Origin: Dictyostelium discoideum
Taxonomy: Eukaryota
Length of the DNA: 64,000 nt
Assembly (NCBI GenBank): GCA_000004695.1
Contig: CM000151.3
Location: forward strand, 3,552,001 to 3,616,000
Reading direction: 5' to 3'
The first letter of the stretch is position 1; the number at the start of each line of letters is the position of its first letter. The notes beneath the pieces were generated by a model. The model worked only from the letters and a program-made list of their open reading frames with translations, did not search any database and was not told where the DNA came from. Position numbers and translations under genes: made by a program. Positions 6,497-64,000 of this stretch are shown here, one piece after another.

Positions 6497-7340
6497 CAAT
6501 AAAAAAGGTACCAGGTCATGAAGTAATTGGAAAAGTTGATAAATTAGGACAAGGTGTTAATAATGAAGAATATGGAATTGGTAAAATGGTAGGAGTTGGA
6601 TGGTTTGGTGGTAATCATTGTGGTAAATGTGAAGATTGTAAAGAGAATGAATGGGTACATTGTAAAGAATCCTATGTTTGTGGAATTCATTATGATGGTG
6701 GATATGCAGAGTATATGACAGCACCAGCAGATTCACTAGTTCCCATACCAGATTGTATGGATCCAGTTGAAAGTGCACCATTGTTATGTGCAGGTGTAAC
6801 TGTATTCAATTCATTTAGAAATCAAAAAGTTAAAGCACCTGCATTAGTTGGAGTTCAAGGTATTGGTGGATTAGGTCATTTGGCAATTCAATTTTGTAAG
6901 AAAATGGGTTTTGAAGTGATTGCTCTATCAAGTGGAAATTCAAAAGAACAATTAACCAAAGAATTGGGTGCTCATTATTATGTTGATACTTCAAAAGATG
7001 GATACATTGATAAAGTTAAATCAATTGGTTCAGTCAAATGTATTTTAGTAACTGCTCCATTTGCATCGGCTGTACCAGGTCTATTAGAATGCTTAGGTAC
7101 AAATGGTAAATTAGTCATCCTTGCCGCATTTAATGAACCATTTAATGCAAGTTCTATAGCAATGATTGGTGGTTCGAAATCAATTATTGGTTGGGCTTCT
7201 GGAGATTCTCGTGACTCTTCTGATACCTTTAACTTTGCTCGTAATAACCAAGTTAGACCAATGGTAAAATCATTCACATTAGAAGAAGCAAATGAAGCAT
7301 TAGATGGAATTAATAATGCTAGATTTAGAAATGTTATTAA

Positions 7341-7347
<7 letters not shown>
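6114..7347 (+). CDS. Zinc-dependent alcohol dehydrogenase-like protein (MDR superfamily); 3 exons (6114-6258, 6373-6398, 6508-7347)
   Basis: Exon 1 reads MSMKAAVFKEKNGKLEVVQMPIPEPQPGWVRIKVEACGVCHSDFFVKYG with a gtaatt donor. The 26-nt micro-exon reads GMGNKFPR with a gtaatt donor. Exon 3 starts VPGHEVIGKV, then the structural-Zn motif CGKCEDCKENEWVHC and the Rossmann motif GVQGIGGLGH. All phases are compatible. Confidence 0.75.
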
Positions 7348-7375
<28 letters not shown>

Positions 7376-8970
7376 GAATTTCTAAATTTAATTTTATTAA
7401 AATTTAATAAAATTAGTTTAATTTAATACTTATTTTTAAATTCATATAAAAAATAATAATAAATAAAAAATAAAAAAATAATAAAAATCGAAAAGAGAAA
7501 AAAGAAATAAAAAAATTATTTGATTTGATTTTTTTTTTTTATTTTTTATTTTAATTTTTTTTTTTTTTGTAAAATTTATATTTTTTACTTTATTAGAATT
7601 ATTTTCTTATATTTTAAAATTTTAAGGTATACAGATAATCTAGATATTTTCAAACTCTTGTTTTTAAATGGATTAATTAAAAAATAAACAATTCGTAATT
7701 TCCTATTATGTCAAAATATTGTTAAAAAGGTTAAAAATAACTTTATTCGGAAAAAAAGTGGGTTATATTTAAAAAATTTGTAAACACAAAAAAGGGAAGT
7801 TATAGAAATTTATAAATCTTTTTTTTATTTTTTTTTTTTTTTTATTTTTAATTTTTTATTTTTTTATTTTTAATTTTTATTTTTTTTTTTCTTTTTTTTT
7901 TTCTAAGCAATTTTGTCGGCCATTTTTCTTTTTTCATTTTTTTTTTTTTTTTTTTTTTAAATTAAGAATTATTTTGGTAAATTAATATATCTAAGTGAAT
8001 AACAATATGAGCTAACAAAATTATTTAAATTATTTTCTCCTTGAAGAATTTTATTAGAACAATAATTATTATTAATTGAAATTAAAGATGATTTTGATTG
8101 AATTGGTTTATTTATAATTGATTCTAAATTTAGAAAAAAGAAAAACAATTTTAAATTAGAATATTTTCATTCCAGAATTTTTTTTTAAAATAATTTACAA
8201 ATTAAAAAATTACATACTAAAAATAGACATTTTGGGAAATTAAGTATTTTAGTTTATTAGTTAATTTAAAATTTCTTCTTTTTTTAATTTTGGTTGTTAT
8301 TTTTTTCTTTTTTTTTTTTTAATGAAATAATTTATTTTTTTTTTCTTCTTTAAATATTAATTTTTTTTTAAAGAAATAAAATAAAATAAAATAAAAATAA
8401 AAATAAAAATAAAATAATAATTTTATAAATAAAATTACAATAATTATAGTAAAAAAATAAAATTAACCAATTATATGTTGATGTAATTTTAATACTTACT
8501 TAAATTGCTAAATACGGTTATGTTGATAATACATTTCAAACTCCCTTCATTGCTACCAACACTTATATAAGTGGGTATTTTCTAATTGTTTTTTTTTTTT
8601 CTTTTTTCGGGCGAGTGATAATAATTTTAATATTTAAAATGATGTCGTTAATTCATATAGAATTAAGTTATATATCATCATCATTTCCACGTGAACCCTA
8701 ATGAAATAAAAGTATTATTTTTGAATAGAAATTAGAAAACAAAATAATATATATACCCTATTATTATATACTTTCAAAACCAACAACTAAATATTTATCA
8801 TGATAACGACCAACTTTTTATAATTAACTGACTTTATACTTATAATTTACCAACAATGTTTATCAAATATTAACTTTGAATGTGTGTGTTGGTTTGGATG
8901 TATAATTTTGTGTATGCGTGGGGAAAAAATTATTGTTATTTTTAATAAAATAAAATAATATTAAGAAATA

Positions 8971-9014
<44 letters not shown>

Positions 9015-9435
9015 AAAAAAGAAAAATAAAAAATAAAAATAAAAAAAGTAGTAATTATTATAATAATTGTAAAAAAAAAAATCAAATTTATTATAAAGAT
9101 AAAATAAAACATTTTTGACACACACTTAATACGATTAACGATTTTAATTAAAAAAAAAAAAAAAAAAATTTTACTAATTACAGGATTACAATTTGTAATT
9201 TTTATTGCATTTATTAATTTTATTTTTTTAATAAAAGATGAGCTTTAAGATTGAAATTTGTAGTATGTACTTTTTTTGACAAGAAAAAAACCTTTTTTTT
9301 TTTTTTTGGCAATGAATAAATAATATTATTATATATTATCTTTTTTAAATGGTTTTTTTTTTTTTTTTTTTTTTTTTTAAACAGTTTTAATTATTATTTT
9401 TTTTTTTTTTTTTTATATTTTGGTTTTTGTTAAAT

Positions 9436-10889: not shown

Positions 10890-10938
<49 letters not shown>

Positions 10939-11813
10939 TGTATATATAAAATTTAGAAATGATGGCACTACTGTTTAAATAATATTTATATATTTATTTA
11001 TTTATAATTATTATATTGTTTTTGTTGTGTTGTCTTTGAGCAGAAATTTGGTTTTCAAATTCAAATAAATTTAAAATTAATAATTATTAAAAAAAAAAAA
11101 TATTTTGATATTTTTTTTTTTTTTAATTTAATTTTAATTTTTTTTAATTTTTTTTTTTAATTTTTTTTTTTTTTTATTATTATCTTAAAAATCGATGATA
11201 GAACGTCAAGAATATTGGTGGGAGTGTTGAAATTTTGCACCAGCGTGTGAAAGTTTAAAATTAGGTGTTTTGTTTTTTTTTTTTCCAATTTTTTTAAATC
11301 ACGCCAAAAGGTTGGATTTTTTTTTTTTAAAATTTTATTATAATGTATAATGCTATCGTGGGTGAACAAAGAAAAAAAAAATATATTGTAGAATGAAAAG
11401 AATATTGTGTGTGTGTGAGTGTGTGTGTGTGTAAGAAAATAAAAAATAAAAAAATAAAAAATAAAAAATAAAAAATAAAAAATAAAATAATAAAACAAAA
11501 TTTAAATATGTATGAGAGAATACAAAAAAAATTAAATAAAAATAAAAAAAAAAAATAAAAAATAAAATAAAATAATAAAATAAAATTACAATGAAAATTG
11601 AATCTTCAGTTTCAAATAATAAAATAATATTCACCAAAAAAACTTTTTTTTTTTTTTTTTATTTTATTTTATTTTTTTTTTATTTTTATTTTTTTTTTTT
11701 GATTGACAACTTAATCTATACTAATTATTAGAAAAAGATAATTATTTGTTTTTACATTTTTTGAAAAGAAACAAATTAAAACCATTTTTTCACCAAGTAA
11801 CCGGAAAAGAAGT

Positions 11814-11891
<78 letters not shown>

Positions 11892-12871
11892 CTAATATTC
11901 CAAAAGGTATTGACGTGGAATTTTTTTTTTTTTTTTTTAATTGAATCATTTATTATTATTATTATTATTTTCTTATTATTTATTACGCAATCAATATTGT
12001 GATTTTTTCAATCATTATTAAAAAAAAATAATAATAATGTGGGAAGAAATTTAAATTAATTTATTTAGTAAGGAATACATTACTTGTTTGAAAACATTTT
12101 TATTTGGCATTATTACGTAAATTTTATAATAAAAACTCTAATAAAAAAAACAAAAAAAACTACAATAAAATCTTATTTTCCTGTCATCTAAATTATTTAC
12201 AAAATAATTTTGTCAATTTCGAATAAATATAACGAAAACAAATTTTTTAAAAAAATGACTCTTTTTAAAAAGTTCATAATTTCACATTCAAATATTAATT
12301 ACTTATTATGAATAAGGATGAAATAAAAAAAAAAAAAAATAAAAAATAAAAAAAAATTGTTTTGTTACCCAAAGATAAAAGATCAAAAAAAAAAAAAAAT
12401 TAAAAAAAAATTAAATTAAAAAAAAAAAATTTAATTTTTAAAAAAAAAAAATTAAAAATAATTAAAAACGGAACTAAAAATCATTTTCATGAAAATGCAT
12501 ACCTGGTAGTTTTTTTTTTTTTAATATTTTTAGTCGAAAAAAAAAAAAAAAAATAAAAAAGTGTGACAAAAATAAATTAATTTATTATAATTTATTTATT
12601 TATTTATTAATTATTTATTTATTTAAAAACTTTTACACATAAAAAAAAAAAAAAAAAAAATTCAATTTTCACACATTTCTCCCAATACAAATAAAACTTT
12701 TTTTTTTAATAATTTGTATTTTTTAAATTTTCACACTACAACGACAACAAATATAATTCTTCATTATACAATACTTATATAATATACCACCTTATACAAA
12801 CATACATACATACATACAAACATACATACATTCATAATATATAATCAATACATATAATTTTAAAATAAGAA

Positions 12872-13597
<726 letters not shown>

Positions 13598-14227
13598 AAA
13601 AAGAATAACGAAATATAAAAGGAAAAAAAAAAAAAAATTAACAATTCAATCATATATAAACTCATACAAACAAACAACAACAACAACAACAACAGCAGTA
13701 AAACATCAATAATATACTTCATACAAATCTTTGGATAATTAAAAGCGCATACTTTTTTATTTTTATTTTTTTTTTTTTTTAAAAAAAAGCAATAACAACA
13801 ATAATAAACCTGTAAATAAATAAAACACAACTGAATACAAATTATAAATTTTACTTTATATATTATTTTTTTTTATTTTTCTTTTTATTTTCATTTTACA
13901 AAAAAGTAATTATGAATTAGCTTAAGATTTTTTAAAAATAAAATCATGATTAAATAAATAAAAAGTTTAAAATTTTTAGAAACTCATTAAAAAAAAAGGA
14001 ATATTTTATTTGTTTATAATTTTTAATTATGCAAACCCACATCAAAACATATCACATCACATCACATCACACATTCAGATATTAATCTTATTTTTATTTT
14101 CTTTATTTTTTTATTTTTTTTATTTTTTTTTTTTAATTTTACAAAAATAACCCACAAAATATCTAACATCATCCCTAATTCTATATTATTCTTCAATTTA
14201 ATAAACTTTTTAAATCATATTGAACTT

Positions 14228-14345
<118 letters not shown>

Positions 14346-14829
14346 AATAAATTTTTTTTTTTTTAATTTTAGAATTTAATATTTTTATAAAGTTTATCTT
14401 AACATACCATATTTTATAATTTAATTTCAAAAAGTAATTACTTGATTTAAAATTAATTTTTTGAAATATTTTTTTTCTTATAACCCCTTCCATTCCACCA
14501 TCTACCACTATTAATAAAAATAAAATTTCAAATAAACAGTTTATTAATTATTTCATAAAAAATGAGATATTTCAAATAATTTGATAATTAATACCATACA
14601 TTTTAATCATTAGTATTGAATAGTGTAAAAATAGTCTTTAAAAATTTTAATTGAAAAAAAAAAAAAAAAAATTATTGGTGAGAGTATGTGTGTAGGTGGG
14701 GGTGATTATATTTGTGTGGGTTCAATTAAAATTTTAAATTGTCTAGAATTGAAAATTGAAACCTTTTATAAATTATTATTTCTAATAAAAATACTATTTT
14801 TAATTCTATTTTAATAGATTTAATTGTCA

Positions 14830-15060
14830 ACAAATGAAAAAGTGTTGCTATTAGTATTCTAAAATCACTTTATAATATTACTTCAATTAATATGGTAAAC
14901 TCTTCAAACACTTTAATTGTGAGCCAGGATCTCAGTTTTTTCACCAACTATATTAAATTAAAAATTAAACTTGTTACTTCATTTTATAATAAATCTCTTC
15001 CTCAATTAAAGAAATTAGATAATTTGTAAATATAAATTATTATTTTACATTTACCTTATA
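14830..15060 (+). pseudogene. Decayed fragment of the secreted-protein family found at 15518 and 17600
   Basis: Nucleotide similarity to exon 1 of the downstream copies: ...ttctaaaatcactttataatatt..., ...caggatc..., ...cattttataataaa...ctc(c)tt..ttaaa(g/a)aaatt.... There is no signal-peptide start and several stops. Confidence 0.35.
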
Positions 15061-15517
15061 TAATATAATTACATTAATTTAATTTTTTTTTTTTTTTTTT
15101 TTAATTAATAGGGAAATTTCTAAAATCTTATTATAAAAACAAATATATTATTCAAAAACAGTTTCTTTAAGAAATATTTCTACAAAAATAAAAATAAAAA
15201 ATTTTTTATATTTTTCATTGATAAAATTTAAATTAATTTCCATTCATAAATATATAACCTTACTTTTAATCATTTTGATATATATAGTCTTAAAATAGAA
15301 AAAAAACATTTCTTGTGAGTGATTATTTTAGTGTTTTTTATTAAAAAAATAAAAAAATAATAATAAAAAATTTATAATATATTATAATTTATTATTATAA
15401 TTATTTATTTTTATAATTAAATTTTTATTATTATTATTTTTTTTTTTTCTTAATTTTTTTTTCTTTATAAATAATTTGAAATTAATTTTTTTTTTTCCTA
15501 ACTAAATTGTTAAAAAA

Positions 15518-15942
15518 ATGAAATATATTAAATTAATTTTTATTATAATCTGTTTTTATATAAATTATCAAAGTATTAGTTCTCTTGGAAATCAAGTATC
15601 CATAAATGAAGCTCTTGTTGCTATAGGTATTCTAAAATCACTTTATAATATTGGCACAAACAATTTTAAAGAAGTTTGTGATTATAATGATTGTTTTAAA
15701 TGTTCATTATATAATGTTTCAAAACTATATACTATAACTTCAATTAAAATGCAAAAATCTTGAAATATTTTTATTGTTACCCAGGATCCCAATGTTTTTA
15801 AATCCTTAACTAAATTAGTAATTGGTGAAAAAGTTCAACTAACAACTTTGTTTTATAATGAAACACTCCCTTTATTAAAAAATTTAAAAAAATTGTAAAT
15901 ATGTATTATAATTACTCAACTTTGTTATAATAACATTATTTT

Positions 15943-16001
<59 letters not shown>

Positions 16002-16790
16002 AATAGAGAAATTTCAAACCAAGAACATCCTTTCCCAGATAAATTTAATATCCCAGATAAATTGTCAGGAGTTCAATTTAATTCAATTTTTGTACCATTA
16101 AGTTCAATTTGGTTTTAGGCAAATATTTATTCATTATATGTTTATAATACATTACCTGGTTTTATATATCCAAAATTAACAAAAAAAATATAAATTTAAA
16201 TATAAATGGATTTATATTTGACACTCAATCATATTGATAGTAATGTACCATCATTGAAATTAATCAAAAATTTATTAGGATTGGGATTTGGAATTTATAA
16301 TGAAATGTCTCAAAAAGGTTACAAGAATTTTTCAATTGATTCAATTAATCGAGTATATAAATGTGGCATTGGAGTTCAATTTCATTAACTCTGGTAATGA
16401 AGCAACAATTCAAAAATTCACATCACAACAATCATTAATTTCAAAATTTAAACTTTGTTGGTTGGTTTTCAAAGGAATTAGTTTTACTCTTGATCCATCT
16501 ATTGGTTATTTATTTAATAATTTTTCAAAGATGGATGATATATATGGTATTGATTTATATGTATAAATATATTGCTTTTAAAAATTTTTTTTTTATGTAT
16601 TATTAATGTAATTTATAATATTTTTTATTTTTAAAATAGGAAAATAAATGGAACTTGTGATCTGGTTAATGAATGTAAAGTTACAAATTGTGTTGTACTA
16701 CCTACTGTTACATCAACCTCACATAATACATTTAGAAATATTTGTTGTAAAACTACCTCGGTAACACCAGTTGATTATTTGATTGTTTAT
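15518..16790 (+). pseudogene. Frameshifted paralog (pseudogene) of the secreted protein gene at 17600..18828
   Basis: Same N-terminus (MKYIKLIFIIICFYINYQSI..) and the same 3-exon layout as the 17600 gene. The exon 1 frame breaks after ...SIKMQKS (stop at 15763) while homology continues in another frame (…LPLLKNLKKL). Exon 2 is split between two overlapping frames (ORFs 16206..16388 and 16288..16566). Exon 3 homology (..GTCDLVNECKVTNCVV..) runs to about 16790. Confidence 0.5.
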
Positions 16791-17149
16791 TAAAAAAAAA
16801 AAAAATGGAATGTTTGGCTTTCCAACTCCACAATGGTAATAGCAATGTAAGAGGATTATCTTTAGCACTAAATCTGATCCCCTCCCTTCTTTAAAATTAA
16901 AAAATTGATCATTTTTATTTAATTTTAGAATTTAATATTTTATAATGTTTTTCTTTATATCACAAATATTTAAAAATTTTAATTAAATTGCATCCATAAA
17001 CAGTTTCATAAATCTAGGATGTTTTAAATAAATTAGTGTAATTATTATGAAATTATTTCGATCTATTAATTATACCATACTTTTAATCGATACAATAAAC
17101 ATATTATTTATTATTAAAATAGTTTTTAAAATTTGGAAAAAAAAAAAAT

Positions 17150-17400
17150 AATTTTAGTGGGGTATGTGCAGGTGAGGGTGAGATTGTATCCGTGTGAAGT
17201 GTTAATTGGGGTTGAATTAAAATTTATTACCATTCACTAATATTTAAAGCCATACTTTTAATCATTATGATATATAGTCTTAAAACAATAGCAAAAAAAA
17301 TTTTAGTGGGGGGGTGTGATTATTTCTGTGTTTATGTGTGTAGGTCAAGGTGTGATTATTTCTGTGTAAATATTTTTAAAGGGGTTGGATATAAATTATC
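17150..17400. promoter_or_regulatory. GT/G-rich elements (G-box-like) upstream of the intact secreted-protein gene; the same motif class recurs at about 14683-14720 upstream of the pseudogene copy
   Basis: gtggggtatgtgcaggtgagggtgag..., ttttagtgggggggtgtgattatttctgtg..., gtgtgattatttctgtg appear in otherwise about 85% AT DNA. They are duplicated together with the gene unit. They resemble the GT-rich G-boxes bound by G-box binding factor in Dictyostelium post-aggregative promoters. This is inference only. Confidence 0.3.
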
Positions 17401-17599
17401 ATTTATCAAGAATTATATGTCTTAATAAAATTATATTATAATTCATTTATTATTATTTTTATATAATTTTAATTATTATTATTTTTTTTTAATTTTAATT
17501 ATTGTTGTTTTTTTTATTTTTATTTTTTTTTTTTTTCCTTTATAAATAATTTGAAATTAGTTTTTTATTTTTTTATTTAAAATTAAATTTTATAAAAAA

Positions 17600-18018
17600 A
17601 TGAAATATATTAACCTAATTTTTATTTTAATTTGTTTTTATATAAATTATCAAAGTATTGGTGCTGATAGAAATGAATTCCCCATAAATGAAATTCTTGC
17701 TGCTAAAAGTATTCTAAAATCACTTTATAATTTTGAAGCAAAAACTTTAGAAGAAATTTGTTTTTATGGTTGTTTTGTATGTTCACCTATTTATGAACCA
17801 AAAACATATGGTATAACTACAATTAGAATAAACTCTACAAGATTATCTTTTGTTTCTTATGATTTCAGTATTTTTCGATATTTATCTGAATTAATAATTG
17901 AAGAAAATATTCAAATACAAACCGTATTTTATGAAAAAACACTTCCTTTATTAAAAAATTTAGAGCTTTTGTAAATATAAATGATAATTACTCTCATTTG
18001 TTATAATTTCATTATTTT

Positions 18019-18068
<50 letters not shown>

Positions 18069-18828
18069 CTCTAATTGATATAGAGAAGTTTCAAAACAAG
18101 AACAACCTTTCCCAGATAATTTTAGTCCCCCAGAAAAATTGAAAACTGTTCAATTTAATTCAATTTCTGTGCCATTAAGTTCAATTTGGTTTGAGGGAGT
18201 TATTAATAGAATAATTGTTAAAAAAACATTACCTGGTTTTAAATATCCAAAACTAACAAAAATAAATACATATATAAATACATTGAGTTTATCACTCAAT
18301 CATATTGATACAAATGTACCATCAATGGATTTATTCCCAAATTTAGAATTAATAAATTTTCAAATTCATAATGAAATGTCTCAAAAAGGTTACAAGAATT
18401 TTTCAATAGATTCAATTAATCAAGATTGGTATAAAAGAGTCAATGCAATGGAAATCCAATTCATAAACTCTGGTAAAGAAGCAACAATTCAAAAATTCAC
18501 ATTACAACAATCATTAATTTCAAGATTTAAACTTGACTATTTACTTATAGATGGAATTGGTTTTACTGTTGATCCATCTATTGGTTATTTAAATTTTTCA
18601 AAGATGACTGATAAAGGTTTTGTTTTGTATGTATATATATATTCTTTTTAAATAATGTTTTTTTAATATCTTATTAATGAAATTATTATTATTTTTTAAA
18701 ATAGACATATAGTAGGAGATTGTGATCTAATTAAAAAATGTAAAATTTCTAATTGTGTTGTAATGCCTAATGTTGCAGGAAAAAAATACCAAAATGAAAT
18801 TATAGGTCCTTGTATTACTGGTCGCTAA
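17600..18828 (+). CDS. Secreted Cys-containing protein of unknown function (about 346 aa, N-terminal signal peptide); 3 exons (about 17600-17970, 18084-18626, 18705-18828)
   Basis: Exon 1 reads MKYINLIFILICFYINYQSIGADRNE... and ends at a gtaaat donor. Exon 2 reads EVSKQEQPFPDN...KMTDKGFV and ends at a gtatgt donor. Exon 3 reads (L)HIVGDCDLIKKCKISNCVVMPNVAGKKYQNEIIGPCITGR with a stop. Phases are consistent. It is the intact member of a local 3-copy tandem array. Confidence 0.6.
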
Positions 18829-19367
18829 CACCAAATATAATTGATTCATCATCTAAAACTACCTATTGAACAACAAACAACAGCAACAACAGGAACTAAT
18901 TCAACACAGCTTGATGATAATAATTTTCATTAAATTAAACCTATCATTGATATTTAATAAAAGTTTATATTATAATTATATATATTACATATTATATAAT
19001 ACAGTTTAAAAAGAAATATGAGTGCATTAATTTGATTACTTAAAAAAATGGTTTTAACACAATTGTGTTTTGTCTTTTAATTTCCAATTTATTAAGAAAA
19101 TTGTAAATGTTGCAGGGAATTTTCAATAAAATTTCTTTCCAGTGAATTTTTTAATTTAATTTCCCTACACTAACTGAGAGAAAAAAAAAAATCATTGACC
19201 ATTAATTTTTTTTTTTTTAAAAAAACAAATAAAGTTTATTATTTTTTGTTTTTCAATTATTATTTATTTGTTTATTATTATTAAAATCCCTCAGGTGATT
19301 TTTTTTTTTTTTTTTTTTTATTTTTTTTATTTTTTTTTTAATTTTTTTTTTTATTATATTGAAATTC

Positions 19368-19413
<46 letters not shown>

Positions 19414-19467
19414 TTTTTGGTTCAAGAAAAAAAAAATGTAATATAATTTTTATAAAATACAATTAAA

Positions 19468-19538
19468 ATGAGTAAAGAATATGAGTAAGAATCTATTTTT
19501 TATTTTTTTCTTTTTTTTTTTTGTTGAAAAAATATTAA

Positions 19539-19581
<43 letters not shown>

Positions 19582-61045: not shown

Positions 61046-64000
61046 TCAGTTCATTTTTTGTAATTTGTTTTGTACTTTTCTTTGGAACAAAACCGATTTT
61101 TTGTTTTTCACAACCAAGTAAACAACTGATACAATAACTACAGTGGCAAAAGCAACGGAACCAATAATAATACCAGCGAGTTGAGCACTTGTTAGTTTTG
61201 ATTTATTTGATGTACAAATTGAATTATTATCATTATTTGATACTGGTTTACTATCTACTAATACTGAAAAGTCTGGATCAATAATTATTGATTGTTTATA
61301 GTTTGGTATTGTAATACCAATGAATGATTGTGATACTGATGATGTTTGAACTGAGTTCATTTTTGAATCTAATAATTGATTTTCAATTGAAGATACTTTT
61401 GAATCGATGATTGCTCTTTTAATGAATCTACCATAAAGTGAATGGTCATCAATTTGAATTTTAAAGAAGTTTGAATTATCACCATCGCTTGTATCTCCAA
61501 ATTCTTTTAATGAACAAGTATCTTTGGAAGTTGATGATTCGAATAATGCTGACATTACAAGTTGAAGACTATTTAATTGATTTAAAAATTTATATTCTGT
61601 AATTTCAATTGTATATTTAATACTTGATGGATTCATTGTTATATTATTATTTGCGAATTGAATGATTTTTGTTTGATTGAACCATTCTAAAGTTACAGTA
61701 ATATTAGTTATTAATGGATTTGTTGATTTTGTATCACCACTTTGGATACTTGTAAAGTATTGACTTTTAATATTATTAATTGGTGTATAAATCCATTTAT
61801 CAAATGTATATAAATTAACTTGATTCGAATTAAAATCTAATTCTCTTAATGATACAATTGAAATCAATGATTTGAATAAATAATTTGTACTATTTGATGT
61901 TTGATTATTGTTATCGATAATTGGTAATTCAGTTGATGGCTGTGATGTATTTGTTGATGGTTGTGGTATAATTATAACTTGTGAATTACAATCATTACCA
62001 ATCCAAGGTGGATAACAAATACATCCACTTGGCGAACAAAAACCTTGTTTTGATCCACCACATACTGGTTCACCTAAACATGTTTGTGGTTTATTCGTTG
62101 GTATTGGTGATGATGTAGGTATTGGTGTTTGTGTTGGTGTTGGATCTATAAAATTATAAACTATTGGATTGACAGTGAATTCATTTGATGTGAGTGGTAG
62201 GTCTGAAACTTTGATAATGAATGGTTTATCAGTTGGTTTAATATTTTTAATAAACATTGCACTCCAATAAACTGTAGTTGGTACTATTATTTGATTAAAG
62301 CTTGAGTCTCCTTCATATTTTACATATACTTGTTGCGTTGAATTGAAACATCTACCTGTTATCCATAACTCGCTATCAAATGAATTAAATTTACTGCATT
62401 TTGTGATTTGTATTACTTTATTAAAAGCTATATTATTAATTGTATATATAAAAGATAAATTATTTAGTGATTCGCTTGAATATCCGCTATAATAACCGCC
62501 ATTATTAATGAATCCATAAACACTGAAAATAATATCTGAATTGTATCCAAATCCTATTGGTAAATTGATGGTACATGTATAGGTTGCAGCTGTTTCGTTT
62601 ATTGAAATAATAGATGATACACATTCAAGTGTTTGTGCTTCTATTGTTTGAATGTAAACAATTGGATATTGTTTATCTTTTAAACCACTTTCAATATCTA
62701 CTGCTTCAAAGTTGAATAATAAATATTGAGTACCATCACTATTTTGTCTTAATATTGGTATGAATGAAGTTAAAATTGGTGGTGAACTATCGATACCATC
62801 ATTTTCACCACTACATGTTTTATATACTTTATTTATTGTTGGATCTGATAAATAATTTATAAATACATTTTTAATACCATCTATTCCATTAACTACTGAA
62901 AATTCACCTGAATAACCTTGAGTATCATATAATTTAACTTGTGTGATAATATAATTTTGAGATGCGCATTTACTTGGTAAAGTTATATTAATTTGATAAT
63001 CACCATTAAATTTATCACCTCTTGTTAAATTTTGAGTTGTTAAATGGAATTTATAAGTTGAACTATCCATTTCACCTCTCACTATAATATCACCATAATC
63101 AAAACCATTAATTGGATCATCTATTGTAAATTTCCAACCAAATTCATTTGTTGAATTAACCTTTTCAATATTACTAAATATTGGTCCATATTCATCGAAA
63201 TGTTTAGAAACAACTATTAGTTGTGATGATAAAGGAAACATATCATTTGTTATTGCTCGAAAACCACACCATAAAAAGAAACTGAGTGGACCAGGTCTAG
63301 TGTTTGCAAGAACTGTAAATTTAATTTGATATTTTGAAATTGTTGAATTCCAAGTTGCAAACTTTAAACTATTGAAATCTATATTAGAATCTGTGGTATT
63401 ACTATTTAAAATAAAAAGTGAGAATGAAGCTGAAGGATTACTATGGGTTTGAGTACCATTATAATTGAAATAAATTATATTATCAACTGATTTATTTGCC
63501 ACATCAATATAATTTTTTAAAAATGTAATATTTTCTATTAAAACAGGTAATATTGTTGGAGCTTTATAATCTATAACTGAAAATGGATTAATTGAAAAAT
63601 AACTATTTAAATAATAAACTTGACTCTTTTTAAAAGTTGAATCTCCAATAGATAAAAATTGAAAACCACGCCCTTTAAAATCATAAACAATTTCATATAT
63701 ATTATTTTCAGCATCTACCAATGATTCTTGTCTATATATTCCATTTGCATCATCATCATTAATTTGAATGAAAAGATTATAACCAATCTCTTTATATGTT
63801 GGTTTTATTTTAATTCTTAATAAATGAAATTGTTCAAAAAGGTATATAACTTTACATGATTCTAATTCTAATGGTAGTAATGATGAATTTATTGCTATAT
63901 TTAAAAATATTTTTTAATGTTAGTAATTGTTTTGAGTGTGTGTGTGTTGTTCGGTAGTAGTTTAGAATATTAATGATTTTATATGTGTATATACTTACTA
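61046..64000 (-). CDS. T-family copy T3 (reverse strand), 3' part: fused exon 5+6 (61046 to about 63905) with the upstream exons beyond the window end
   Basis: ORF 61046..63721 is 891 aa. The frame continues to an acceptor aatatag at about 63905 (..ESCKVIYLFEQFHLLRIKIK..). It reads ...SSQLIVVSKHFDEYGPIFSNIEKV... straight through the position where T1 and T2 carry the microsatellite-containing intron 5. The C-terminal 400 aa are near-identical to T1 (same EGF knot, TM and tail VKNKKSVLFQRKVQNKLQKMN). Confidence 0.6.

Follow-up and report, generated by a model that had tools for sequence, protein, structure and literature searches.

A tandem stub, pseudogene and open gene in Dictyostelium discoideum as the probable remnant of a birth-and-death expansion with G-box promoters

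We examined a stretch of 64,000 nucleotides (nt) of Dictyostelium discoideum chromosome 2 (assembly GCA_000004695.1, contig CM000151.3, positions 3,552,001 to 3,616,000; hereafter the window), in which a sequence-only reading had described a three-copy tandem array of a gene for a secreted (signal-peptide) protein. We find that this locus is probably what is left in AX4 of a birth-and-death expansion, specific to the lineage, that a Dictyostelium-only gene went through, with a single copy that still works and is driven by G-rich promoter boxes. The three copies, which we call A (the fragment), B (the pseudogene) and C (the open gene), lie head-to-tail on the + strand and are confirmed by self-BLAST and tblastn, but the copy that had been described as intact is altered too; all three copies are altered, to very different degrees.

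In the history that we propose, the ancestral product would have begun with a signal peptide, followed by an ectodomain of ~300 amino acids (aa) resembling leucine-rich repeats (LRR) and by a small cysteine knot; a stalk rich in Ser and Thr would have led on to a hydrophobic C-terminal tail, typical of signals for the attachment of glycosylphosphatidylinositol (GPI). Copy A would be the first, ancestral copy, cut down to a 300-bp stub next to which the orphaned distal promoter, with its C box and G box, stays in place, while B would be the second copy, a full-length dead pseudogene whose G box has eroded as well. Copy C would be the third copy and the only working gene, predicted to encode a soluble secreted LRR protein after a frameshift removed its stalk and tail. 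It would be driven by a duplicated G-box module ~230-450 bp upstream of its ATG, together with a conserved TATA/leader block, and the G boxes would switch it on at the aggregate-to-mound transition by binding G-box binding factor (GBF) or a factor of similar specificity.

Three head-to-tail copies of one gene

The coding parts of the array are as follows.

14826-15127, + strand: fragment A, made up of what remains of exon 1 (14826-15026), a relic of intron 1 (15027-15113) and 14 nt of exon 2
15518-16793, + strand: pseudogene B, with exon 1 (15518-15895), exon 2 (16008-~16560) and exon 3 (16641-16793)
17600-18828, + strand: gene C, DDB_G0273049/DDB_G0273933 (Q556N0), with exons 17600-17970, 18084-18626 and 18705-18828, encoding 345 aa
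18815-18990, + strand: fossil of the coding region for a Ser/Thr stalk and hydrophobic tail, in the 3' flank of C

Self-alignment, the check that had been named for the repeat structure, bears it out: B (15350-16712) and C (17423-18777) are 78% identical over 1388 nt at an offset of 2065-2082 nt, and A matches B with 95% identity at 14843-14879 and 73% at 14867-15102. The repeat unit of about 2 kb proposed from the sequence fits the B-to-C period of ~2.08 kb but not the A-to-B spacing, which is shorter (~770-870 nt) because of deletions. With either C or a full-length orthologue as the query, tblastn found matches at these three sites only in the 64 kb. The window has a G+C content of ~20%, and the region around the array is ~99% identical to a D. 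discoideum assembly (L001). We compared the array with further loci from D. discoideum (L002 and L006), D. cf. discoideum (L003), D. firmibasis (L004) and D. dimigraforme (L005).

The fragment, which had been placed at about 14830-15060, is real but extends more widely, over 14826-15127. Its translation reads SVAISILKSLYNITSINMVNSSNTLIVSQDLS... and SVAISILKSLYNITSINMVNSSNTLIVSQDLSFF...LPQLKKLDNL (tblastn and direct translation), and its closest relative is P0003, the product of the first gene of the D. cf. discoideum array. The TATA box, the ATG and the signal peptide have been deleted from A, and alignment with the first D. cf. discoideum gene (L003 g1) reveals a 1-nt deletion, an 81-nt internal deletion and deletions of 3 and 9 nt. 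The upstream flank, including an (AAT)n tract, is common to A and the first L003 gene; A is therefore the remnant of the ancestral copy. The intron relic of A contains ~20 T at 15085-15104.

Copy B, correctly recognised in the sequence-only reading as a frameshifted three-exon pseudogene from 15518 to about 16790, runs from an ATG at 15518 to a stop codon at 16791-16793. It carries an in-frame TGA (15761-15763), a TAG (16116-16118) and at least four frameshifting indels. Near 16185-16215, 5 and 1 nt have been inserted, and near 16352, 5 and 3 nt have been lost. The full-length homology to C (78%, introns included) is thus combined with disabling mutations, and B is a pseudogene, of the unprocessed type because its introns are retained. 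Intron 1 of B includes a run of 51 T, and uninterrupted runs of ~50 T are found in intron 1 of both B (15945-15995) and C (18021-18069), a striking length for a homopolymer shared by two paralogues.

The AX4 annotation splits B into two small 'hypothetical protein' genes. The first, DDB_G0272907/DDB_G0273929 (98 aa), joins 15518-15625, 15818-15892 and 16008-16115, and an intron of this model skips the TGA; the second, DDB_G0272574/DDB_G0273931 (88 aa), takes up 16300-16563, where it reads exon 2 in a shifted frame. Both are apparently artefacts of annotation, one of them using an invented intron. Beyond the stop of B (16800-16900), the sequence ...GGATTATCTTTAGCACTAAATCTGATCCCCTCCCTTCTTTAA reads RGLSLALNLIPSLL and a stop in one frame and is conserved in L002 (~9301-9340); RGLSLALNLIPSLL may be a relic of the ancestral hydrophobic tail.

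Our spliced model of C is identical, residue for residue, to the AX4 protein Q556N0 (P0007), which is annotated but uncharacterised and combines a signal peptide with an LRR-like domain and a Cys knot. This identity marks the window as AX4-type sequence. DDB_G0273049 and DDB_G0273933 specify the same protein, the genes lying in the duplicated part of chromosome 2, and a full-text literature search for the two identifiers found no paper.

Truncation of C and the ancestral architecture

The gene called intact at 17600-18828 does have a clean 345-aa open reading frame (ORF), but it is truncated at its 3' end relative to the ancestral gene. C ends in ...CITGR and a stop, while the full-length orthologues run on as ...CITPSLTP... 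into a Ser/Thr stalk and a hydrophobic tail. The missing part can still be read in the 3' flank of C, where the +1 frame after 18815 gives SLTPNIIDSSSKTTY and a stop and a further frame gives QQTTATTGTNSTQLDDNNF; when C is aligned with L003 g1 and L005 at the nucleotide level, one nucleotide is missing from it directly after TGTATTACT. Thus, C is truncated by a 1-nt deletion that took away the Ser/Thr stalk and the GPI-like tail kept by its orthologues in sister species.

The full-length proteins are 412-420 aa long, with ~90 residues beyond the cysteine knot, whereas the D. discoideum copies stop 21-23 residues past it. In P0003, P0005 and P0006, the region after the knot has an S+T fraction of 0.36-0.39, and its last 18 aa are hydrophobic (Kyte-Doolittle 1.9-2.3). 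The ancestral form therefore has the composition of a GPI-anchored glycoprotein (signal peptide, Ser/Thr stalk and hydrophobic C-terminus), and AX4 C is without the stalk and tail. From this composition we infer that the ancestor was anchored in the GPI manner and that its derivatives are soluble and secreted.

The family appears to be confined to Dictyostelium. A word-indexed search returned six homologues only, all of them from Dictyostelium, and an exhaustive profile search returned 29 proteins, of which every one looked up belongs to a Dictyostelium species. Relatives of 700-1900 aa, such as DDB_G0284073, share the same N-terminal ~330 aa and continue into IPT/TIG domains. No Pfam domain scored above threshold for C, LRR_RPS2 remaining below it (18.2 bits against a cut-off of 27.9). 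An AlphaFold model of C, based on six sequences, has alternating strands and a mean pLDDT of 69, and the top PDB matches listed by Foldseek for it are mostly LRR proteins (TIR1, LRRTM2, TLR2, internalins), with weak scores (best E = 9.5e-4, TM ~0.3). The model thus weakly suggests that the domain of C is LRR-like.

The syntenic loci hold one copy in D. firmibasis, one in D. dimigraforme and four tandem copies in D. cf. discoideum, and the arrangement is different in each of the D. discoideum lineages L001, L002 and L006. The L002 array comprises an A/B chimera, an extra exon-2 fragment, two open copies and a B-promoter remnant at 8866-9285; the L006 array has neither A nor B and consists of a truncated copy, two unrelated inserted genes and a C orthologue. 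The genes inserted in L006 between the truncated copy and the C orthologue (10904-16235) are a RING/ZNF598-like gene on the minus strand and one with a 998-aa product. In the automatic annotation of L006, the Ras-family GTPase gene downstream is fused to the C orthologue (560 aa). In L002, ~1.1 kb of sequence separating its open copies (7157-8262) is G-rich on the + strand and has no counterpart in the array of the window.

G-rich boxes are kept upstream of C and eroded upstream of B

The promoter elements of the array are as follows.

14473-14515, + strand: C-rich box AACCCC..CCACCATCTACCAC of the ancestral distal promoter, now orphaned upstream of A
14562-14613, + strand: promoter blocks ATGAGATATTTCAAATAATTTGAT and ACCATACATTTTAATCATTAG, near-identical in an alignment of AX4, L002, D. 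cf. discoideum and D. dimigraforme
14677-14723, + strand: G/GT box of A (ancestral first-copy promoter), with 21 G in 50 nt and five overlapping KGKGKGK matches
15255-15340, + strand: B promoter module, of the type of the second C module, with an eroded GT box and the vestige CTTGTGAGTGATTATTTTAGTG at 15312-15333
15462-15517, + strand: B core promoter and leader TCTTTATAAATAATTTGAAATTA, with a 22-nt TATA block identical to that of C and conserved in all species
17075-17222, + strand: C promoter module 1, with G box 1 (17152-17214), reaching 21 G in 50 nt; homologue of the A, L003 g1 and L003 g2 boxes
17248-17388, + strand: C promoter module 2, a tandem duplicate with G box 2 (17301-17367), counterpart of the eroded B box
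17537-17599, + strand: C core promoter and leader CCTTTATAAATAATTTGAAATTA, conserved in B and all orthologues

The promoters of the family have a common layout across species: a C-rich box at ~-500, ATGAGATATTTCAAATAATTTGAT at ~-400, ACCATAC(A)TTTTAATCATT at ~-320, a G/GT box between -170 and -450, and CCTTTATAAATAATTTGAAATT at ~-65. The C-rich box is found at ~-500 in L002, L003 g1, L003 g2 and L005; it is deleted upstream of AX4 C and present in L002 g3. In AX4, a module of ~130 bp (ACCATACTTTTAATC ... TAGTGGGG ...) occurs at four sites (14590, 15255, 17075 and 17248), as a tandem duplicate upstream of C and in the second type only upstream of B.

Each unit of the array had been said to carry G/GT-rich elements, and for A and C this is correct. 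Both of the motifs that had been quoted are present (14677-14723 and 17301-17367), and the 21 G per 50 nt in the A box and in C box 1 are as many as any AT-rich 500-nt segment of the window reaches (mean 10.6, 99th percentile 20), a density not explained by chance. For B the statement does not hold, since the best 50-nt segment has 8 G, under the background mean, and a vestige is all that is left of the box. The distance of about 300-800 bp given for the boxes needs correction as well: those of C lie at -448..-386 and -299..-233 from the ATG, and that of A, which aligns with the G boxes of L002, L003 g1, L004 and L005, is only 103-149 nt ahead of the first coding remnant of A. Likewise, the pseudogene retains its promoter only in part. 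It has kept the TATA/leader block and the AT-rich part of one module (15225-15306 is 82% identical to 17215-17299), but the G box has eroded: the G-run and the downstream GT repeat are absent from the B module, and the remnant of the same module in L002 retains more of them, in an alignment from which the L002 rows L002x and L002_g2 were left out.

Across the four species with such loci, G boxes are present upstream of 9 of the 12 copies, at -170 to -450. Among AX4, L002 and L006, identity is 93.7-95.4% in G box 1 and 93-97% in G box 2, compared to 87.7-88.9% in the coding sequence of C. Local non-coding DNA is ~7% G, and tracts of 40% G have nevertheless been retained in the live promoters and lost in the dead one, which argues for function. 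The G boxes are closely followed by conserved sequences that contain TTGA, at 14746-14763 (AGAATTGAAAATTGAAACC) and 17205-17222 (GGGGTTGAATTAAAATTT); these look like the TTGA repeats to which STAT proteins of Dictyostelium bind in promoters of prestalk genes.

GBF-type sites and the developmental expression of C

The GBF response element is (T/G)G(T/G)G(T/G)G(T/G) (PMC2257962), and GBF binds G-rich motifs of the prestalk gene cprB and of prespore genes (PMC6598861). The boxes had been likened to GBF targets, and strict matches to this consensus (KGKGKGK) are indeed found at 14687-14721 in the A box and at 17307-17317 and 17335-17341 in C box 2; neither C box 1 nor the region upstream of B has a strict match. 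The window as a whole contains 55 KGKGKGK heptamers compared to 25.4 +/- 5.7 expected, with clusters in the A box and C box 2; a motif of such low information is no proof when taken alone.

Published expression data agree with the proposal that the family is regulated after aggregation, as far as C is concerned. In PMC4403905, 8,040 genes pass the expression threshold, DDB_G0273049 being one of them, and by list membership (Additional file 7) this gene belongs to UP_Hr09_gradual on filters and to UP_Hr06_rapid in cAMP-pulsed suspension, in which, according to the authors, cells run ~4 h ahead. It is marked 'pst', for prestalk, in the reference gene list of another study (bioRxiv 10.1101/2021.05.27.445976, File S8). 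The four B-derived identifiers occur nowhere in the files of PMC4403905, which include the complete differential-expression lists and the sorted expressed-gene list at least up to the identifier of C, and neither DDB_G0273049 nor DDB_G0273933 appears in the consulted portion of the supplements of PMC6198379. PMC4403905 describes gbfA as a factor for the aggregate-to-mound transition, and lagC depends on GBF (PMC2257962). By these lists, C has risen by 9 h of development on filters and by 6 h under cAMP pulsing, and it is a prestalk gene. GBF-dependent genes such as lagC switch on at the same time as C. Based on motif and timing, GBF control of C is plausible.

The strongest competitor, which we consider possible though distinctly less probable than our explanation, is that the G boxes do act in cis but through some other factor, for instance a prestalk-specific activator, so that GBF would not be directly needed. 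The listing of C as prestalk-specific speaks for this, whereas GBF is needed for both prestalk and prespore genes; so do the missing strict heptamer in G box 1 and the conserved TTGA-containing sequences that flank the boxes (GGGGTTGAATTAAAATTT; AATTGAAAATTGAAAC at 14748-14763). However, there are several strict GBF-type heptamers in the A box and C box 2, C is induced by 9 h of filter development and by 6 h in cAMP-pulsed suspension, and G boxes of this kind are also paired in the prestalk sigN clusters, one member of which is dependent on GBF (PMC2257962).

If, on the other hand, the G/GT tracts were functionless, microsatellite-like sequences copied along in duplication, other elements would have to time C. 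The D. firmibasis box is largely a (GT)13 run, the sequence of the box varies between species while AT-rich blocks are better conserved, and the 55 KGKGKGK matches in the window include unrelated sites at 11406-11432 and 63937-63947. We nevertheless regard this as improbable: tracts of 40% G persist at the same position in four species despite ~7% G in the surroundings and AT-biased mutation, the boxes are 93-97% identical among the D. discoideum lineages compared to 88% for coding sequence, and B, the one full-length copy freed from selection, has lost its box.

The reading frame of C is kept while its protein changes fast

The ORF of C is open in AX4, L002 and L006, with indels that are all in frame, although 11-12% of its coding nucleotides differ among these lineages. 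If C were decaying neutrally, we would expect the frame to have been interrupted. In simulations with AT-biased mutation and the local non-coding base composition, in which each lineage received 59 substitutions (half of the 119 coding differences between C and L002), the frame was free of stops in only 0.3-0.5% of trials. An open C frame in three diverged lineages is thus very unlikely under neutral decay, and because the frame is open in all three and is so rarely stop-free in neutral trials, we conclude that it is kept by selection while the protein changes fast.

We estimated the ratio of nonsynonymous to synonymous substitution rates (dN/dS) by the Nei-Gojobori method over codons 1-305. 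Among full-length orthologues the ratio is 0.36-0.47, but it is 1.0-1.3 for C compared to its L002 and L006 counterparts, 1.68 for these counterparts compared to each other, and 1.7 for B compared to C; the neutral expectation from the simulation is 1.1-1.4. We considered classing C as a pseudogene on the grounds of a dN/dS near 1 and rejected this, since the neutral value is itself 1.1-1.4 and AT-biased mutation quickly destroys an ORF.

More generally, all three copies could be dead, as the wording of three stages of decay would have it if taken literally, C being the youngest pseudogene whose frame has not yet been hit. The 3' truncation of C by a frameshift, the deletion of its C box and a dN/dS of ~1.0-1.3 to its orthologues, equal to the neutral expectation, would fit such a state. 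We judge it highly improbable, given the open frame with in-frame indels in lineages 11-12% apart and its rare survival in the simulation; in addition, the published lists above have C as expressed, developmentally regulated and prestalk-enriched, and the promoter of C is better conserved than its coding sequence.

An unlikely possibility is that C-type copies without an anchor are fast-diversifying, prestalk-secreted LRR proteins under positive or diversifying selection. Behind it stand the dN/dS of 1.0-1.7, the retention of the frame in three lineages, a promoter better conserved than the protein, and a locus structure that differs in each D. discoideum lineage examined. If this were true, such proteins could serve self/non-self discrimination or interactions with microbes, by analogy with the polymorphic tgr loci.

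Finally, the ~130-bp module could be read not as a promoter but as a gene for a small non-coding RNA or as part of a mobile element, of which there is next to no chance: although it occurs four times, it is absent from the rest of the 64-kb window, its distance to the ATG of the family member downstream is fixed in every species, and no Rfam family at E<=1 in 13500-19500 and no tRNA in the window goes with it. A small RNA gene had come into consideration through the motif ACCCACAA at 14151-14158, which we take to be like the Dictyostelium upstream sequence element (DUSE) of small RNA genes, and was dropped after the Rfam search (13500-19500, E<=1) and the tRNA scan came back empty.

Several points count against the explanation that we prefer, that of a birth-and-death remnant with C as the one working, G-box-driven copy. 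The GBF heptamer is degenerate, G box 1, the better conserved of the two, is without a strict match, and GBF is suggested by motif and timing only. The entire 500-bp promoter can be aligned among close species, so that conservation by position does not by itself set the G boxes apart, and the AT-rich block ATGAGATATTTCAAATAATTTGAT is at least as conserved as they are. At the protein level, the dN/dS of C (1.0-1.7) equals the neutral expectation, and apart from retention of the ORF no constraint is visible. The LRR assignment comes from a medium-confidence model (pLDDT 69) and weak Foldseek scores, and it is only composition that suggests a GPI anchor for the ancestral form.

Relation to known systems

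In having G/GT boxes a few hundred bp upstream with several (T/G)G(T/G)G(T/G)G(T/G) matches, the array resembles the GBF-dependent promoters of cprB, cotC and lagC, which, like C, are on at ~8-10 h and are cell-type-specific. The ancestral array promoter also has a C-rich box in the opposite orientation, as do GBF-dependent promoters with a G box and a CA-rich element. Unlike in cprB, cotC and lagC, G box 1 of the array has no strict heptamer, and the boxes are embedded in a duplicated 130-bp module with conserved AT-rich blocks.

The sigN clusters (PMC2257962) are similar in that their genes are recent duplicates grouped together and encode small proteins that are secreted or of the adhesion type, with paired G-rich boxes read as GBF sites, induction at 10-12 h and prestalk expression. 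The protein families are unrelated, however (small SigN proteins compared to LRR-like proteins of ~345 aa), and the sigN promoters serve divergent pairs, whereas the array copies are head-to-tail and mostly decayed. A second comparison is with the LRR-like surface proteins that have IPT/TIG domains (DDB_G0284073, 880 aa; DICPUDRAFT_151045 of D. purpureum), whose N-terminal ~330 residues are homologous to the array proteins (profile E 1e-19 to 1e-40) and which likewise have a signal peptide and are found in Dictyostelium only. The array genes differ from them in having neither IPT/TIG domains nor a transmembrane segment; the ancestral array form would run on through a Ser/Thr stalk to a GPI-like tail, and in D. 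discoideum the copies stop just past the Cys knot.

The birth-and-death model of gene families describes the array well, with copy numbers of 1, 1 and 4 in sister species, variation among D. discoideum lineages, decayed copies (a fragment and a pseudogene) next to a live one, and a survivor of changed architecture. What sets the array apart from the general case is that the decay of its promoter can be traced element by element, because the ancestral promoter is conserved in outgroups. It thus offers a natural experiment in promoter decay, in which one promoter can be followed through a live copy, a dead one and an orphaned stub, with single-copy outgroups for comparison, and the retention of G boxes with the live gene and their loss with the dead B are an indirect but useful sign that such boxes function. 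The case is one of ordinary tandem gene turnover with developmental G-box promoters, and it leaves the current view of Dictyostelium gene regulation unchanged; the surviving copy adds a hint of fast evolution.

Two consequences follow, the first for the reference annotation. DDB_G0272907/DDB_G0273929 and DDB_G0272574/DDB_G0273931 become pieces of one pseudogene, with an unannotated fragment upstream. DDB_G0273049, an uncharacterised prestalk gene, gains a family, a domain architecture and a probable history, from a GPI-type surface protein to a predicted secreted one.

Sequences flanking the array

An (AAT)n microsatellite of ~40 units (14229-14350) lies between an upstream 180-aa gene and the array, and is also found upstream of the first L003 gene. 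Upstream of this tract are a CA-rich box, CCCACATCAAAACATATCACATCACATCACATCACACATTC, and the motif AACCCACAAAAT (14036-14075 and 14148-14163). This region is conserved in L002 (3214-3260) and L003 (9155-9198), and a degenerate copy of it precedes L003 g2; the ancestral duplicated unit therefore probably started in the 14036-14163 region. On the other side, between C and the downstream Ras-family gene, there is an imperfect inverted repeat of 83 nt, formed by a long T-run (19364-19446) and a long A-run (19498-19580).

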